Below, piece by piece: positions 2,834-10,155 of a stretch of DNA of 10,385 nucleotides. The translations under genes were made by a program, and so were the position numbers. Every line of letters starts with the position of its first letter. Position 1 is the stretch's first letter. Origin of the DNA: a virus. The stretch lies in UHGV virus genome UHGV-0113374, one strand, 5' to 3'. The notes below the pieces were generated by a model. The model worked only from the letters and a program-made list of their open reading frames with translations. It made no database searches and was not told where the DNA came from.

Positions 2834-3160
2834 TCAGATTAATGCGATGGATTTGCCCTTCGTTTTCTGGCGACCAACACAAGTCACACCCATTTCACTG
2901 CGTGGCTTGCTGTACCATGTGCGCTGATTCTTGCGCTCAATACGCTGCAGGTTGCTTTCAATCTGTTCGTGGTATTCAGCCAGCACCGTAAGGTCTATCG
3001 GATTCAGTGCGCTTTCTACTCGTGATTTCGGTTTGCGATTCAGCGAGAGAATAGGGCGGTTAACTGGTTTTGCGCTTACCCCAACCAACAGGGGATTTGC
3101 TGCTTTCCATTGAGCCTGTTTCTCTGCGCGACGTTCGCGGCGGCGTGTTTGTGCATCCAT
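2834..3160 (-). CDS. N: N transcription antitermination protein
   Basis: 108-aa product MDAQTRRRERRAEKQAQWKAANPLLVGVSAKPVNRPILSLNRKPKSRVESALNPIDL... matches lambda N including the arginine-rich boxB-binding N-terminus; AGGAG SD upstream; nutL upstream. Confidence 0.9.
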   Translation of the reverse strand: MDAQTRRRERRAEKQAQWKAANPLLVGVSAKPVNRPILSLNRKPKSRVESALNPIDLTVLAEYHEQIESNLQRIERKNQRTWYSKPRSEMGVTCVGRQKTKGKSIALI

Positions 3161-3648: not shown

Positions 3649-4290
3649 TCAGGAGAATTTCATCATCATCTGCACTGCTACGCCGATTATCTTGCAGTTG
3701 CCGTCGATTGGGATCAACGGATAGGCAGGGTTAAGCCCTTTCAGGTATTTGTTACCGCCATCAATGATTAGCTTCTTGAACGTGGCTTCATTAGCATCTG
3801 TCAGCTTCGCAACTACCAGGCTTCCATTAACGGCTTCCTTTCCAGTGTCGAACAGAACCAGCATACCCTCAGGAACGCTAAGGCCGGTAGGAGCTGTCAT
3901 TGAGTCGCCCTGAACCCTGAGCCAGAAGGCGTCACCGACAACGTGACAATCTGATTCATACCACTCATCCACTGCCTGAGGGTTGTACGGCTCTACGGCC
4001 TCACTCCATGCACCTGCGCTAACCCAGCTAATCAACGGAAACTTTTCCCCTGGCTTGTATTGTCCCTGATAGTTGTCGCCAAAAAGCAGTTCTGCCGGAG
4101 CGACGCCCAAAGCTTTAGCTATTACCTCTGCGTCATCAACACTAACGCTTCTGGTTCCTGATTCATAGTTGCCGATCCGAGATTGTGAAGCCCAGCCGCA
4201 AAGCTCCGCCAGAGCCTTCTGTGAAAGCCCTTTATCTTCCCGTAATCGCTTGATACGCGCGGCGATAGTTTCTGTTCTGTTCATGCGCAT
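3649..4290 (-). CDS. cI: CI-type prophage repressor (N-terminal HTH, C-terminal LexA-like S24 autopeptidase)
   Basis: 213-aa ORF; HTH region LSQKALAELCGWASQSRIGNYESG; Ala-Gly cleavage site in VSAGAW; GDSM serine motif and downstream Lys; C-terminal domain closely resembles P22 C2 and lambda CI. Confidence 0.9.
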   Translation of the reverse strand: MRMNRTETIAARIKRLREDKGLSQKALAELCGWASQSRIGNYESGTRSVSVDDAEVIAKALGVAPAELLFGDNYQGQYKPGEKFPLISWVSAGAWSEAVEPYNPQAVDEWYESDCHVVGDAFWLRVQGDSMTAPTGLSVPEGMLVLFDTGKEAVNGSLVVAKLTDANEATFKKLIIDGGNKYLKGLNPAYPLIPIDGNCKIIGVAVQMMMKFS

Positions 4291-4295
4291 TTTAT

Positions 4296-4357
4296 ATCAC
4301 ATTCCGTGGTTTAAGGCTTTACACGATTTGTGTTGACTATCAATCACAATATGTGTT
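4296..4357. promoter_or_regulatory. OR operator: three 15-bp repressor sites (4296-4310, 4320-4334, 4343-4357)
   Basis: atcacattccgtggt, tacacgatttgtgtt and atcacaatatgtgtt; centre spacing 24 and 23 bp; overlap the pR -35 and -10 and the putative pRM, mirroring lambda OR3-OR2-OR1. Confidence 0.6.
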
Positions 4358-4361
4358 TAAT
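4333..4361 (+). promoter_or_regulatory. pR promoter (-35 TTGACT, 17-bp spacer, -10 TTTAAT)
   Basis: TTGACT at 4333-4338 and TTTAAT at 4356-4361, about 35 nt upstream of the cro ATG. Confidence 0.55.
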
Positions 4362-4394
4362 AAAGACTGAGTGAACTAGCTCTTAAGGAAACCT

Positions 4395-4610
4395 ATGAAC
4401 AACATTGCCAACGAACGGAAAAAGCTTGGCATCACTCAATCTGCGTTAGCAGGCGCGTGTGGCTGGAACCAGTCCCGCTTAGCTAACTACGAGTCAGGTA
4501 TCCGGACTCCAGATTTAGAGTCGTGCCGTCGCCTGGTAAAGGCGCTGAATAAATTGGGGAGCAAGACAACGCTAGATGGCTTGTTCCCGCCGGAACACAA
4601 AGCCGCTTAA
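4395..4610 (+). CDS. cro: Cro-type repressor (HTH, 71 aa)
   Basis: AAGGAA SD then ATG 4395; HTH LGITQSALAGACGWNQSRLANYESG nearly identical in its recognition helix to CI; divergent from cI across OR. Confidence 0.8.
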   Translation: MNNIANERKKLGITQSALAGACGWNQSRLANYESGIRTPDLESCRRLVKALNKLGSKTTLDGLFPPEHKAA

Positions 4611-4650: not shown

Positions 4651-4673
4651 ATCAAATTAAACCACACCTATGG

Positions 4674-4695
4674 TGTATGCATTTATTTGCATACA
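4674..4695 (+). terminator. tR1-region hairpin (TGTATGCA-tttatt-TGCATACA)
   Basis: Perfect 8-bp inverted repeat between nutR and cII, in the position of the lambda rho-dependent tR1; no U-tract, so not an intrinsic terminator. Confidence 0.4.
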
Positions 4696-4729
4696 TTCAA
4701 TCAATTGTTATCTAAGGAAATACTTACAT

Positions 4730-5008
4730 ATGCAACTTACAAGTACTCGCAAGAAAGCGAATGCAATTACAAGCAACATCCTGAATCGAATTGCTGTACG
4801 TGGTCAGCGAAAGGTTGCCGACGCGTTAGGGATTAATGAATCGCAAATTTCGCGATGGAAAGACAGCTTTATCCCAAAGATGGCCATGCTTCTGGCTGTT
4901 CTTGAATGGGGAGTTGTTGATGATGAGATGGCGAGACTTGCTCAGCAGGTGGCATCGATTCTCACAAAAGAAAAACGCCCAGCTGTTGGTAGCAGTCTGG
5001 ACGCTTAA
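4730..5008 (+). CDS. cII: CII transcriptional activator
   Basis: 92-aa product from ATG 4730 (AAGGAAA SD); ...ESQISRWKDSFIPKMAMLLAVLEWGVVDDEMARLAQQVASILT... is closely similar to lambda CII; the track ORF 4670..5008 starts at an upstream alternative codon. Confidence 0.9.
   Translation: MQLTSTRKKANAITSNILNRIAVRGQRKVADALGINESQISRWKDSFIPKMAMLLAVLEWGVVDDEMARLAQQVASILTKEKRPAVGSSLDA
4753..4766 (-). promoter_or_regulatory. putative CII-binding site of a pRE-like promoter (TTGC-N6-TTGC on the minus strand)
   Basis: Plus strand gcaattacaagcaa is the reverse complement of TTGCTTGTAATTGC, located in the first codons of cII as pRE is in lambda. Confidence 0.4.
4963..5003 (-). terminator. oop-like antisense terminator at the 3' end of cII
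   Basis: Minus-strand RNA would fold CGUCCAG-(14-nt loop)-CUGGGCG followed by UUUUUCUUUU; positioned like the lambda oop RNA terminator. Confidence 0.4.
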
Positions 5009-5042
5009 GCACACTGTGTTACGCCAAGTAACAGGAGTAATT

Positions 5043-5219
5043 ATGCCAGGACAAACCAAGCAAGTAAACACCGGCATAAAGGCCGGTGACAAGTTCGAAA
5101 CCGTATATCCATTTATCTTCGTATGCACAGATTATCAGTCTTATGACGGCAACGTGCATACCGATGAGCGCTGGATTGGCGGTTGTCACAAAAATTATGA
5201 GCCAGCCGATTGTGGTTGA
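5043..5219 (+). CDS. hypothetical Cys-containing small protein (58 aa)
   Basis: ATG 5043 preceded by AGGAG SD; the track ORF 4836..5219 is an upstream extension overlapping cII. Confidence 0.5.
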   Translation: MPGQTKQVNTGIKAGDKFETVYPFIFVCTDYQSYDGNVHTDERWIGGCHKNYEPADCG

Positions 5220-5442
5220 TCAGTGTTTTTACACCGCTGATGCTGAAGGAAAGAGAATTCTTGAGGTTCTGGCAGTGGTGGAAATGCCAGGCAACTGGCA
5301 GCGCAGAATCATTTATTCGTGCCACCTCATAGAGCCTGAAGGCAAGGAGAGGAAAGGAAGGAAGGCTTACACAGTCACCGAATCAAGGTTTTTAAAAATG
5401 TCTACTGGTTACTTCGCTGATTACGAAGTAGAGGAGGCTTAA
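5197..5442 (+). CDS. hypothetical protein (81 aa from ATG 5197; start uncertain, track ORF begins at GTG 5086)
   Basis: ORF track 5086..5442; no candidate start has a strong SD; ATG 5197 overlaps the end of the preceding ORF, which could give coupling. Confidence 0.4.
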
Positions 5443-5588
5443 TGACAAAACCACTCAGTCCTTACCAGGACAAAATTCACAAACACATACTACGTGATCG
5501 CTTCCTGTCCAGCTTCAAGCAGCCTGGTCGATTCCGGGCTGAGTTGGAAAAAGTGAAGCTGATGCAGAAGGAGAAAGGTCATGAGTAA
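5442..5588 (+). CDS. hypothetical small basic protein (48 aa)
   Basis: GAGGAGG SD then ATG 5442, overlapping the upstream stop (TAATG); ends 8 nt inside the initiator gene; below track cutoff. Confidence 0.35.
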
Positions 5589-6441
5589 TCTTGCAACCGT
5601 AACACATTTAAGGCCTTCACAACGGCCTGTGGAGCGTCGTGTGGCAGAAGTTGAAGATGGTTATACCCGTCTTGCAAATGCCCTGTATGAAGAGCTTATC
5701 GGCGCAGATTTAACGAAAAATCAGAGCAAGGTTGCCCACGCCATATGCCGTAAAACATACGGCTACGGTAAAAAGATGGATCGCATCTCTGATAGTCAGT
5801 TAGCTCAAATTACCAGGCTGCCAAGACAGAAGGTAAACAAGGCCAAGAATGAGCTTATCGCGATGAAGGTTATCCTTCGCGAAGGCCAGCAAATCGGGCC
5901 TAACAAGAACATCGAGGAATGGCAAATCGAAGGGTGTCACTACTCTGGTGATAATGTCACCGCATTGGTGACAAAAAGTGTCACCAAAACGGTGACAGCG
6001 CTGTCACCAAAACAGGGACACACAAAAGAAACTATTACAAAAGAAAAAAGAAATAATAAAAACACTATGTCCGAAAGTGTTCGGACGGAGTGTGAAAAAT
6101 CACCTGACCGTCACGAAGAAACCGACAAGGCATTCGAGGAAATATTCTGGTGTGCAGGCATGCGGAAAGCCGGGAAGAAAAACGCAGCTTCGGCATTCAG
6201 AACACAGTTCAGGGAATGGCGTAAAACTACCAGGGGTACGGCAAGCGAGTTTGCCACGATGCTGGCAGAAGACATCGCATGCAGGAATGGTAAGCAGTTC
6301 GGATTCGACAGGTTGTTACCATCGAGCTACCTGAACGGTCAGCGCTGGAACGACGAAAAGCCAGAAACCATTCAACCACAATCCAAACCATCATCCGCAA
6401 TCACCGTATCGAAAACTGGCTACGTGTTTTTCGACAGGTGA
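5581..6441 (+). CDS. replication initiator, lambda O-like N-terminal origin-binding domain with an unrelated C-terminal domain
   Basis: 286-aa ORF; N-terminal [56 protein letters not shown]...GPNKNIEEW resembles the lambda O N-terminal domain; iterons lie inside the coding sequence. Confidence 0.8.
5935..6020. repeat. four 19-bp origin iterons (5935-5953, 5955-5973, 5979-5997, 6002-6020)
   Basis: tgtcactactctggtgata, tgtcaccgcattggtgaca, tgtcaccaaaacggtgaca, tgtcaccaaaacagggaca; each has TGTCACC/GGTGACA dyad symmetry; 20-24 bp periodicity. Confidence 0.7.
6021..6066. other. A-rich tract next to the iterons (putative origin unwinding element)
   Basis: cacaaaagaaactattacaaaagaaaaaagaaataataaaaacact immediately 3' of the fourth iteron, as in lambda ori. 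Confidence 0.5.
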
Positions 6442-6444
6442 ACC

Positions 6445-6552
6445 ATGAAATCAAAAATCAAATCGCTACTGGTCGCTGGTTATAACCACGGCTGGTTAAG
6501 TATTTCGTTTGTCGATTTCTGGTTTAAAAATCTCAATCTGAGGGAATCATGA
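6445..6552 (+). CDS. possible small ORF (35 aa) bridging the initiator and helicase genes
   Basis: AGGTGA SD then ATG 6445; stop overlaps the helicase ATG (ATGA); hydrophobic; could equally be untranslated leader. Confidence 0.25.
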   Translation: MKSKIKSLLVAGYNHGWLSISFVDFWFKNLNLRES

Positions 6553-8429
6553 CGCCAAGTGAACTTAGCGACCTGCTTTGGGCGCAGGTTGACAGGGTGG
6601 CTCCGCACCTGTTGCCAAACGGCAAGAAAGAGGGGCATGAGTGGGTTGCCGGTAACGTCAACGGTGACAAGGGAAACAGCCTTAAGGTCAACCTTAGCGG
6701 CAAGAAAAAATGGGCTGATTTCGCTGAGGGAGACGGCGGTGACATGCTTGATTTGTGGATGGCATGTCGTGGAATTAACCTGCATCAGGCTATGCAGGAA
6801 GCGAAAGCATTTCTCGGTATCAAGGATGACGATCACCATTTCGATGCCAGACGTGAGAAGAAATTCTCCAGACCTGATCGCAAGAAAATCGCCCGCTACG
6901 TTACCAGAACAGAATCCCATCTTGAGTACCTGCAATCGCGTGGCATATCGCCAGAAATCGTAAAGCGCTACGAGGTTGTCAGCGGCAAGGTGTGGAATGG
7001 AGAGCGAGAACTGGATGCTCTGGTGATTCCGTACAAACGCGATGGTGAGTTGTTGCAGGTCAAGCGAATCAGCACTGAGCGCCCGGACGGGAAGAAAGTC
7101 ATTATGGCAGAAGGTGATTGCGAACCTTGTCTGTTCGGATGGCAGGCTCTGGACGCTGGCGTGAGGGCGGTTGTACTTTGCGAAGGCGAAATTGATTGTA
7201 TGAGCTATGCGCAATACGGCATCTCGGCGTTATCCGTGCCGTTTGGTGGAGGGAAAGGCGCTAAGCAACAGTGGATTGAGTTTGAGTATCACAACCTCGA
7301 CAGGTTTGAGGAAATATTCATCTCGATGGACGTTGATGATGTTGGTCGTGAAGCCGCAAGGGAAATCGCAAGCCGACTCGGTGAACATCGTTGCCGTCTT
7401 GTTACTCTGCCGTACAAAGACATCAACGAATGCCTGATGAACGGTGTTACCGAGGATGAAATCTGGCAGTACATCGGCACGGCATCCTACTTCGATCCTG
7501 AAGAACTCTACAGTGCGCGAGAGTTTTACCAGGACACTATCAACGCTTTCTACGGCAAGCAGCAGTATCTGTTTAATCCACCGTGGGAATCTCTGGCAGA
7601 TAAATTCCAGTTCCGTGAGGCCGAGTTGACGCTGGTCAATGGTGTGAACGGTCACGGAAAAACGGAGGTTGTCGGGCATATGGCACTTGAGGCAATGCGT
7701 CAGGGTGTGAAGACATGCATCGCGTCACTTGAGCTGAAGCCTGGTATTCTCCTTAAGCGCCTTACCCGTCAGGCGACGTGCTGCAAGATGCCGCCAGTGC
7801 TGGAAATTGACTCTGCATTTAAATTTTATGACGAAAGACTTTGGGTGTTTGGCCTGACCGGAACGGCGAAAGCCGACAGGCTGATCGAAATATTCGACTA
7901 CGCTCGCCGCCGATACGGCATCCAGTTATTCATCATCGACAGCCTGATGAAATGCGGCATAGGTGACGATGACTATAACGGGCAGAAAGCATTTGTTGAC
8001 TCGATTTGTGACTTCAAAAACAAAACAAACTCCCACGTCATTCTCGTTACTCACTCCAGAAAAGGAGACAGCGAAGAAAAACCAACCGGGAAAATGGACG
8101 TAAAAGGCTCTGGAGCGATAACAGACCTGACAGACAACCTTTTTATCATCTGGCGTAACAAGGCTCGCGAGAGAGCGTTACAGAGAGTTCAGAGTGGTGA
8201 AAAGATGTCAGAGAAGGACGAACAGCTACTGGCATCTCCGGCATCTGTTTTGATGCTTGAAAAACAACGTAACGGCGAAGGTTGGGAAGGTGGTGTCCCG
8301 TTGTTCCTTGACGAGCAATCGCACCAGTTCCTGCAACTTGAATCAGGATCGCCATATAGCTACATCGCCAATATGCCGAAATCGGAATATGACGAGGCGT
8401 GGCGACAGGAAAACGTGACGGAGTATTAA
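6549..8429 (+). CDS. bifunctional DNA primase-helicase (TOPRIM primase domain fused to DnaB-type SF4 helicase domain)
   Basis: 626-aa ORF with GAGGGA SD; TOPRIM-like VVLCEGEIDCMSYAQYG and MDVDDVG; Walker A GVNGHGKTEV; Walker B LFIIDSLMK; ILVTHSRKG motif; N-terminal region has primase Zn-ribbon-like spacing but lacks the Cys ligands. Confidence 0.85.
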   Translation: MTPSELSDLLWAQVDRVAPHLLPNGKKEGHEWVAGNVNGDKGNSLKVNLSGKKKWADFAEGDGGDMLDLWMACRGINLHQAMQEAKAFLGIKDDDHHFDARREKKFSRPDRKKIARYVTRTESHLEYLQSRGISPEIVKRYEVVSGKVWNGERELDALVIPYKRDGELLQVKRISTERPDGKKVIMAEGDCEPCLFGWQALDAGVRAVVLCEGEIDCMSYAQYGISALSVPFGGGKGAKQQWIEFEYHNLDRFEEIFISMDVDDVGREAAREIASRLGEHRCRLVTLPYKDINECLMNGVTEDEIWQYIGTASYFDPEELYSAREFYQDTINAFYGKQQYLFNPPWESLADKFQFREAELTLVNGVNGHGKTEVVGHMALEAMRQGVKTCIASLELKPGILLKRLTRQATCCKMPPVLEIDSAFKFYDERLWVFGLTGTAKADRLIEIFDYARRRYGIQLFIIDSLMKCGIGDDDYNGQKAFVDSICDFKNKTNSHVILVTHSRKGDSEEKPTGKMDVKGSGAITDLTDNLFIIWRNKARERALQRVQSGEKMSEKDEQLLASPASVLMLEKQRNGEGWEGGVPLFLDEQSHQFLQLESGSPYSYIANMPKSEYDEAWRQENVTEY

Positions 8430-9479: not shown

Positions 9480-9734
9480 ATGCCATTTATAAAATTAACC
9501 ATGCAATGCAGCATCTATCAGCCACCAAGCACAGGCGTGATAGAAAGCACCAGAAGTGCATATGAGCCCTTGTACGTTAACTCTGACAACATCGAAACCC
9601 TATTTGAGGCCGGGATTACGATTGTAAGAATGGCAAGTGGTGAGCGGTTCGATGTTATTGAGAAACCAGAAGCTATTTTGGCGTTAATTAATCCATGCGT
9701 GCAGAAGGTGAGCAATGAGGAAACTAACGTTTGA
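9480..9734 (+). CDS. hypothetical protein (84 aa)
   Basis: ORF track; GAAGGAG SD before ATG 9480; overlaps the ninB start by 20 nt. Confidence 0.5.
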   Translation: MPFIKLTMQCSIYQPPSTGVIESTRSAYEPLYVNSDNIETLFEAGITIVRMASGERFDVIEKPEAILALINPCVQKVSNEETNV

Positions 9735-10155
9735 ACTAAGAAGCCCCATTCATCAGCAAAACGCTATTCACGCGATACAGCAAATTCTTCCAGACCCAAC
9801 CAAACCAATCGTAGTAACCATTCAGCAACGCAACCGCAGCTTAGACCAGAATCGAAAGCTTTGGGCTTGCCTTGGTGACGTCTCTCGTCAGGTTGAATGG
9901 CATGGTCGCTGGCTGGATGCAGAAAGCTGGAAGTGTGTGTTTACCGCAGCATTAAAGCAGCAGGATGTTGTTCCTAACCTTGCCGGGAATGGCTTTGTGG
10001 TAATAGGTCAGTCAACCAGCAGGATGCGTGTAGGCGAATTTGCGGAGCTATTAGAGCTTATACAGGCATTCGGTACAGAGCGTGGCGTTAAGTGGTCAGA
10101 CGAAGCGAGACTGGCTCTGGAGTGGAAAGCGAGATGGGGAGATCGGGCAGCATGA
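9715..10155 (+). CDS. ninB: NinB (Orf) recombination-associated protein
   Basis: 146-aa product [146 protein letters not shown] is near-identical to lambda NinB. Confidence 0.9.

Follow-up and report, generated by a model that had tools for sequence, protein, structure and literature searches.

The segment at 5935-6063, possibly extending to 6093, is most probably (we would put this at about 90%) the origin from which a lambdoid phage or prophage starts theta replication. It is organized like ori-lambda and situated in the linker-coding part of the initiator gene. This judgement rests on sequence comparison, in which all defining features of a lambda-type origin that can be tested on sequence were found. 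The window, by which we mean the whole stretch of 10,385 nt that was analysed, represents the early part of the genome of a lambdoid phage, or of a prophage of that kind, as judged from its open reading frames and Pfam matches, and its early-right genes follow in the order cI, cro, cII, O, primase-helicase and NinB:

3649-4290, minus strand, cI-like repressor
4395-4610, cro
4670-5008, cII
5581-6441, plus strand, O-type replication initiator, an ORF of 286 aa with Pfam Phage_rep_O; the origin lies inside it
6549-8429, plus strand, fused primase-helicase of 626 aa, Pfam Toprim_2 and AAA_25
9715-10155, NinB

The initiator gene and its domains

The initiator matches Pfam family Phage_rep_O (PF04492) over aa 20-114 (E = 1.2e-37), and its gene has 99.1-99.7% identity with those of vB_EcoP-720R6, mEp043, Sf101 and SEN22. 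Identity of the N-terminal domain is 53% to lambda O, 51% to P22 gp18, 59.5% to phiEt88 and 68.6% to the protein of Proteus phage vB_BPM-V3 (Proteus V3). The parts of the gene and of the origin are as follows:

5638-5922, plus strand, predicted N-terminal origin-binding domain, aa 20-114 (Pfam span)
5821-5871, plus strand, putative recognition-helix segment, aa 81-97, from co-variation with iteron class
5935-5953, ITN1, TGTCACTACTCTGGTGATA, degenerate, two mismatches to TGTCACC-N5-GGTGACA
5955-5973, ITN2, TGTCACCGCATTGGTGACA, no mismatches, perfect arms
5979-5997, ITN3, TGTCACCAAAACGGTGACA, no mismatches, perfect arms, A-tract at the centre
6002-6020, ITN4, TGTCACCAAAACAGGGACA, degenerate, two mismatches
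6007-6053, patch near-identical in the window, lambda, ES18 and PhiR12_1, with mosaic junctions on both sides
6021-6063, A-rich tract, presumed DNA-unwinding element, from composition, conservation and frozen synonymous sites
6062-6075 and 6080-6093, 14-nt inverted repeat just past the A-rich tract on its right side, candidate right-hand origin element
6115-6354, plus strand, initiator C-terminal domain, aa 179-258, helical in the AF2 model, with a presumed role in helicase recruitment

The N-terminal domain may adopt a winged-helix fold, a helix-turn-helix followed by a beta-hairpin wing, with which the predicted secondary structure is compatible. In the AF2 model (24-sequence alignment) its pLDDT is below 50, and at that level of confidence helices are placed at aa 71-77 and 82-94 and strands at 98-101 and 104-107, so that helix 82-94 is followed by a beta hairpin. 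PDB sequence searches, made with the protein and with a 12-sequence profile of the N-terminal domain, returned no significant match; the top match of the profile search, itself non-significant, was the winged-helix regulator 2d1h (E = 0.55). Assignment of aa 82-94 as the recognition helix, which is based on this low-confidence model together with co-variation, is tentative since pLDDT is so low in the domain and no solved homologue was found. Residues 108-178 are unstructured in the model (pLDDT about 33), which fits a linker with a sequence dictated by the DNA. Helices of the C-terminal domain (aa 179-258) have pLDDT of 78-87, and the DNA encoding this domain is 93-96% identical to that of ES18, epsilon34 and g341c.

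Four palindromic iterons in frame within the initiator gene

The original prediction was of four iterons TGTCACC-N5-GGTGACA spaced by 20-24 bp inside the initiator ORF. All four are present; perfect arms are limited, in this copy, to ITN2 and ITN3. Start-to-start distances are 20, 24 and 23 bp, within the stated range, and the array begins at initiator codon 119, right after the Phage_rep_O domain, and is in frame within 5581-6441. The pattern with up to three mismatches occurs six times in the 10.4-kb window against 0.34 occurrences expected; none of 200 shuffles yielded six matches, and four of the six lie within 86 bp. The arm consensus holds for its core, TGTCAC-N7-GTGACA, which is conserved, and not for position 7 of the left arm, which is C or T among relatives; in ITN2 most of them have T there. 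The sequence of ITN1, degenerate as it is, is retained in most members of the iteron class. The right arm of ITN4 resembles that of lambda ITN4, and near-identity to lambda and ES18 starts at the ITN4 centre.

Two other interpretations of these palindromes were considered and rejected. They are not operators of the repressor, as palindromes in the cI-cro intergenic region (4290-4395) are of a different type, ACAC...GTGT. A promoter and terminator scan called minus-strand 'terminators' at the iterons and at the 6069-6086 hairpin; these are artefacts, since palindromes in this place adjoin a T-run complementary to the A-rich tract, and no leftward transcription unit is evident. An Rfam scan of the entire window matched no family and thus gave no hint of a structured RNA.

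The lambda architecture with a different iteron sequence

Anatomy of the lambda and Stx phage origins and the mechanism of lambda initiation have been described (PMC7466680). Ori-lambda, like the origins of 434, 21 and Stx phages, also lies within a Phage_rep_O initiator gene, just past the part coding for the N-terminal domain, with four 19-bp dyad-symmetric iterons spaced by 20, 24 and 23 bp and bearing central A-tracts, an adjacent A-rich tract of ~40 bp and an inverted repeat to the right (PMC7466680). To compare the iteron register, we extracted 16 O genes and anchored them on the right by the A-rich motif. The set comprised the window, PhiR12_1, Proteus V3, Citrobacter Omnitron, Midgardsormr38, phiEt88, Pocitis76, CurroJimenez, lambda, ES18, P22, Yersinia 21.09, mEp213, PhiR26_1, Gifsy-1 and PAJU2. 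In all 16, palindromic iterons occupy the same place in the gene, directly to the left of a CACAAAAGA...ACAAAAGA tract, with arms that are specific to the class:

ATCCCTC/GAGGGAT: lambda, ES18
TTTACC/GGTAAA: P22
TTAGCC/GGCTAA: mEp213, Yersinia phage 21.09
TGTCTCC/GGAGACA: Pocitis76, CurroJimenez
TGTTACC/GGTAACA: phiEt88, Midgardsormr38
TGTCACC/GGTGACA: window, PhiR12_1, Proteus V3

Most of the enterobacterial O genes have four iterons that align to those of the window without gaps, a few copies being shifted or degenerate; PhiR26_1 and Gifsy-1 have more than four. The spacing of lambda is found in most of the 16 genes, and with the A-rich tract as anchor the iterons of the window, lambda and ES18 share their register. 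An origin 'similar to lambda' is annotated as rep_origin at the equivalent spot in the GenBank records of ES18 and P22. The prediction that the architecture is that of ori-lambda is thus borne out by register, by spacing and by the 47-bp patch at 6007-6053, as is its statement that the iteron sequence is another one (TGTCAC/GTGACA versus ATCCCTC/GAGGGAT).

In plasmids, iterons have dual roles, in replication and in regulation. It is conceivable that the sites described here bind the initiator and yet are mainly regulatory, acting in copy control by titration or handcuffing, in autoregulation of O or in interference with related phages, and a precedent is given by plasmid-borne lambda ITN3-4 plus oop, which inhibit rep-lambda phages (PMC3349717). 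We consider this very unlikely, as the sites are positional homologues of ITN1-4 in the proven origin of lambda and are joined to a conserved A-rich tract, and a pattern scan of the window revealed no second iteron cluster. Besides, a regulatory side-role would come on top of origin function and not in its place.

Distribution of the probable origin among phages and bacterial genomes

Returning to the origin reading, close copies of the segment are common. IMG/VR yielded 369 stretches with a confirmed relative of the N-domain, the 80 best loci being essentially identical to the window; ITN3 is unaltered in 79 of the 80 and differs at its first base in the remaining one. A 200-bp segment covering the origin was found in 181 of 5426 complete E. 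coli genomes (~3%). The isolated phages mEp043, Sf101, SEN22 and vB_EcoP-720R6 have a 99% identical O gene followed by the same primase-helicase. Since they carry a module 99% identical to that of the window, we infer that the module works.

The same distribution bears on whether the origin, although genuine in type, is inactive in this particular copy, for example in a decaying prophage. Some of the prophages in those E. coli chromosomes may be defective, and the best single phage record spans no more than 44% of the window; such coverage is typical of a mosaic. Both the initiator and the primase-helicase ORFs are intact, however, and the origin segment differs from that of the isolated phages by one base, which is in ITN2 and makes it a perfect palindrome. 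Inactivity of this copy is considered very unlikely.

Selection at the DNA level

The effect of selection was assessed in 12 diverged genes of the iteron class, from Pantoea, Pseudescherichia, Leclercia, Citrobacter, Klebsiella, Proteus and metagenomes, with N-terminal domains that are 73-91% identical in amino acids. Third-position variation was scored in amino-acid-invariant codons only. Third positions vary in 56 of 62 such codons of the N-terminal domain and in 9 of 10 of the C-terminal domain, compared with 2 of 14 in the iteron linker and 1 of 6 in the A-rich tract. Synonymous variability is thus about 90% in both domains versus 14-17% in the iteron and A-rich segment (3/20 against 65/72 elsewhere; Fisher's exact test, p = 2e-10). 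Positions that do vary belong to the centres of the iterons or to the spacers that separate them; invariant or nearly so are the arms TGTCAC and GTGAC, the ITN4 centre CAAAAC and the tract CACAAAAGAAACTATT.CAAAAGAAA. Because synonymous third positions are frozen there, the comparison indicates purifying selection on the DNA of the iterons and the A-rich tract.

That the repeats are a mere by-product of the repeated linker peptide NVTxxVTxxVTKTVT, having no role in cis, might be argued from their being in frame and encoding a VT-rich, low-complexity linker predicted to be unstructured, but the chance of this is close to nil: the frozen synonymous sites exclude a repeat that is purely coding, as does conservation of the DNA register across classes with unrelated peptides (e.g. 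IPQNEGKSPKTRDKTSLK in lambda), and every unit is palindromic at the DNA level, a property that a repeated peptide does not call for.

Iteron arms follow the N-terminal domain of the initiator

The original prediction attributed a distinct specificity to the initiator, and comparison supports this. PhiR12_1 is identical to the window up to nt 473 of the gene (window 6053) except for one base in ITN2, an identity that spans the N-terminal domain, the four iterons and most of the A-rich tract; beyond this point it continues with the lambda C-terminal domain and then lambda P. What PhiR12_1-5 have in common with the window is only the N-terminal half and the iterons. ES18 is the opposite case, as it matches the window from about 6007 on, through the A-rich tract, the inverted repeat, the C-terminal domain and the primase-helicase, and differs in having the N-terminal domain and iteron cassette of lambda type. 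In this respect gp59, ori and gp61 of ES18, and likewise epsilon34 and g341c, share the right-hand part of the module with the window. Since PhiR12_1 and ES18 are natural domain swaps, it follows from them that the iterons go with the N-terminal domain. Proteus V3 combines the iteron and N-domain class of the window with a DnaB-like helicase; despite its diverged N-terminal domain (66-69% identical) and different partner, the TGTCAC/GTGACA arms are kept. In hybrids of lambda with phi80 and with 82 analysed in the 1970s-80s, the N-terminal part of O was reportedly found to determine ori specificity, and its C-terminal part the specificity for P.

Within the N-terminal domain, the window and Proteus V3 agree fully over aa 81-97, whereas all other iteron classes of the protein alignment have another sequence in this segment, which there contains ISRSKANIAK, LSRQNVNKAKK, LPVKRCNEAKLE, MAPTKCSTAK or IHHTHVCTAK; the lambda equivalent, which also differs from the window, reads LPVKRCNEAKLELVRM. 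The 120 database homologues that share the C-terminal domain fall into two classes, in which helix segment and linker peptide are perfectly linked: LPRQKVNK is always paired with the VT-rich linker NVTxxVTxxVTKTVTxxSPK, and LPVKRCNE with the lambda-type linker IPQNEGxSxKT. Finally, the iteron array is present in 14 of 50,697 phage records, exactly those that carry the N-domain class of the window (13 with an N-terminal domain at least 99% identical, and Proteus V3). Across these comparisons the arms co-vary with the N-terminal domain and not with the C-terminal domain or the helicase partner, and aa 81-97, with which they also co-vary, would be the specificity determinant.

The A-rich tract and the right-hand inverted repeat

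An A-rich tract of roughly 45 bp had been predicted to follow the iterons, and it measures 43 nt (6021-6063), with 30 A (70%), 5 T and 8 G+C, i.e. 81% A+T; GC content falls to 17.5% at this place. Its CACAAAAGA...ACAAAAGAAA motif is common to 14 of the 16 O genes, with close variants in the other two, Gifsy-1 and PAJU2. The 47 bp from the ITN4 centre through the A-rich tract (6007-6053) have three mismatches to lambda, and resemblance between the window and lambda around the origin is confined to them. This patch, in which half of ITN4 is joined to the A-rich tract, shows where modules have been exchanged and is likely a crossover site between those for origin recognition and those for helicase recruitment.

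The bounds first given for the origin, 5935-6066, hold for the iterons and the A-rich tract and leave the inverted repeat at 6062-6093 largely outside. As single-stranded DNA this repeat folds with dG = -11.9 kcal/mol (z = -7.5). It is common to the window and ES18 and weakly kept in more distant relatives: one pair of the stem is either T-A or C-G in 11 of the 12 relatives, most of which are mismatched elsewhere in the stem, and their folding energies are -2.4 to -7.4 kcal/mol. The type of palindrome found at this place differs with the class of helicase partner. Thus ATGTCCGAAAGTGTTCGGAC goes with the primase-helicase (window, ES18) and TCGTCAGAGAATTCTGGCGA with lambda P, and with DnaB-type helicases (P22, mEp213, phiEt88 and others) there is a C-run/G-run palindrome that lies in rare codons for Pro and Gly. 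It might be proposed that lambdoid origins are tripartite and doubly modular, with iterons matched to the N-terminal domain, a universal A-rich patch and a right palindrome matched to the helicase partner; 6062-6093 would then be a cis element for entry of, or priming by, the ES18-type primase-helicase. We regard this extension as doubtful. The association of palindrome and partner is confounded by linkage of the palindrome to the start of the region coding for the C-terminal domain, and any role of the right-hand palindrome is speculative since it is weakly conserved within the window's own class.

The helicase partner and a possible course of initiation

The protein encoded at 6549-8429 is equivalent to ES18 gp61, which is annotated as 'putative primase/helicase; similar to phage T7 gene 4'. 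Its Toprim_2 match is clear (E = 3e-12), the AAA_25 match of 28.0 bits is just above the curated cut-off of 27, and DnaB_C, with 23.8 bits, is below its cut-off. In ES18 and nine diverged contigs, the C-domain class of the window always precedes a protein of 597-629 aa with Toprim and AAA_25 or DnaB_C, and the lambda C-terminal domain is paired with P in PhiR12_1, so by this comparison the type of helicase partner tracks the C-terminal domain of the initiator. The P-binding C-terminal domain of lambda O is unrelated to that of the window, and lambda uses P with host DnaB where the window has a fused primase-helicase of Toprim plus DnaB-like type. Because of the constant pairing with this C-domain class, it is likely the phage's own primase-helicase, and not host DnaB via P, that is loaded at the origin.

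By analogy with lambda, initiation would proceed here as follows. Rightward early transcription via cro and cII would lead to synthesis of the O-like initiator, and dimers of its N-terminal domain would bind to the four dyad-symmetric iterons, beginning with the inner ones, so as to bend or wrap the DNA into an O-some. On supercoiled DNA the strain imposed by the O-some may open the adjacent A-rich tract, after which the C-terminal domain, presumed to recruit the helicase, would bring in the fused primase-helicase encoded directly downstream.

Relation to known origins

Clustered initiator-binding repeats beside an A/T-rich unwinding element are also characteristic of plasmid origins such as those of pSC101, R6K, RK2 and P1. 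Plasmid iterons, however, are direct repeats to which Rep binds as a monomer, and they are found outside the rep gene, often together with DnaA boxes, whereas those of the window are palindromes inside the initiator coding sequence. Origins within the initiator gene, with own iterons for each specificity, are established for lambda, P22, L (PMC8022706) and Stx phages (PMC7466680). In gene 18 of P22 and of phage L, class-specific repeats are likewise followed by an A-rich tract (PMC8022706); P22 iterons are of the TTTACC...GGTAAA type and L has 11-bp repeats, and a DnaB-type helicase (gene 12) serves as partner, unlike in the window.

The TGTCAC iteron class appears not to have been described before. 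None of the 14 phage records with the array has a rep_origin annotated under it, the O coding sequence being the only feature listed, literature searches by motif and by the phage names mEp043, Sf101 and SEN22 brought up no account of an origin of this class, and no origin is mentioned in the genome paper of Sf101. As a principle, such origins are well known from lambda, P22, L and ES18, and the current view of lambdoid replication is unchanged. Practical value of the result is modest: rep_origin can be annotated in phages of the mEp043, Sf101, SEN22 and 720R6 type and in ~3% of the complete genomes of E. coli, and the set of paired O-type initiators and iterons gains a further specificity class. 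The classes TGTCACC, TGTTACC and TGTCTCC are only one or two bases per half-site and a few residues in one short protein segment apart, and such related arms form a natural series for studying how the DNA specificity of an initiator changes.

Mosaic junctions and the palindrome beside the A-rich tract

The window, lambda, ES18 and PhiR12_1 are nearly identical over a 47-bp patch (6007-6053), made up of half of ITN4, the last of the four palindromic iterons in the O initiator gene, and the A-rich tract that follows. Since mosaic junctions in the O gene flank this patch on both sides, it looks like a crossover point at which cassettes of N-domain plus iterons and of C-domain plus helicase have been exchanged.

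Directly to the right of the A-rich tract lies a palindrome:

Window, 6062-6093
ES18, 3059-3090
P22, about 1670-1700
Lambda, about 1670-1700

Across these sequences the type of palindrome varies with the helicase partner. With a primase-helicase it reads ATGTCCGAAAGTGTTCGGAC, and with lambda P it is TCGTCAGAGAATTCTGGCGA; DnaB-type helicases go with a C-run/G-run palindrome, CCCCCTAAAGGGGG being one example, that is composed of rare Pro and Gly codons. The right-hand palindrome may serve the origin in a partner-specific way, or its match with the partner may simply come from being linked to the point where the C-domain begins.

Iteron variation and neighbouring classes

The closest other iteron classes, in a comparison that drew on Citrobacter Omnitron, Midgardsormr38 and phiEt88, are 1-2 bases per half-site away from the TGTCACC of the window (TGTTACC, TGTTCCC or TGTATCC), and the same classes carry a few residue changes at amino acids 81-87 of the initiator, in its putative recognition-helix segment (SRSKANI versus PRQKVNK in the window). 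Taken together, these differences amount to a natural series of switches in specificity. Within the window's own array, arm position 7 of ITN2, the second iteron (5955-5973), is C, which makes this iteron a perfect palindrome; of the 80 IMG/VR loci that are near-identical, almost all have T at this position, as do the near-identical phage records (13/13).

Two iteron-like sites lie outside the array:

3930-3948, lone site CGTCACCGACAACGTGACA with 2 mismatches, within the cI-like repressor gene
6651-6669, weaker site with 3 mismatches, within the primase-helicase gene

Both are probably due to chance. Phage mEp043 has the O class of the window, but its repressor gene differs.

Region between cII and O

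Just beyond the end of cII, a GC-rich hairpin with a T-run is followed directly downstream by a promoter-like site:

5040-5088, minus strand, with the promoter-like site TTTACT-17-CATAAT

The hairpin and promoter-like site recall the lambda oop/pO layout, but no Rfam family matched. The gap between cII and O (5009-5580, about 570 bp) contains extra small ORFs, none of which is matched by Pfam. At this place mEp043 lacks them, having only a DUF2740 ORF that overlaps the start of O, and the segment looks like a moron-like insertion into the early-right operon.
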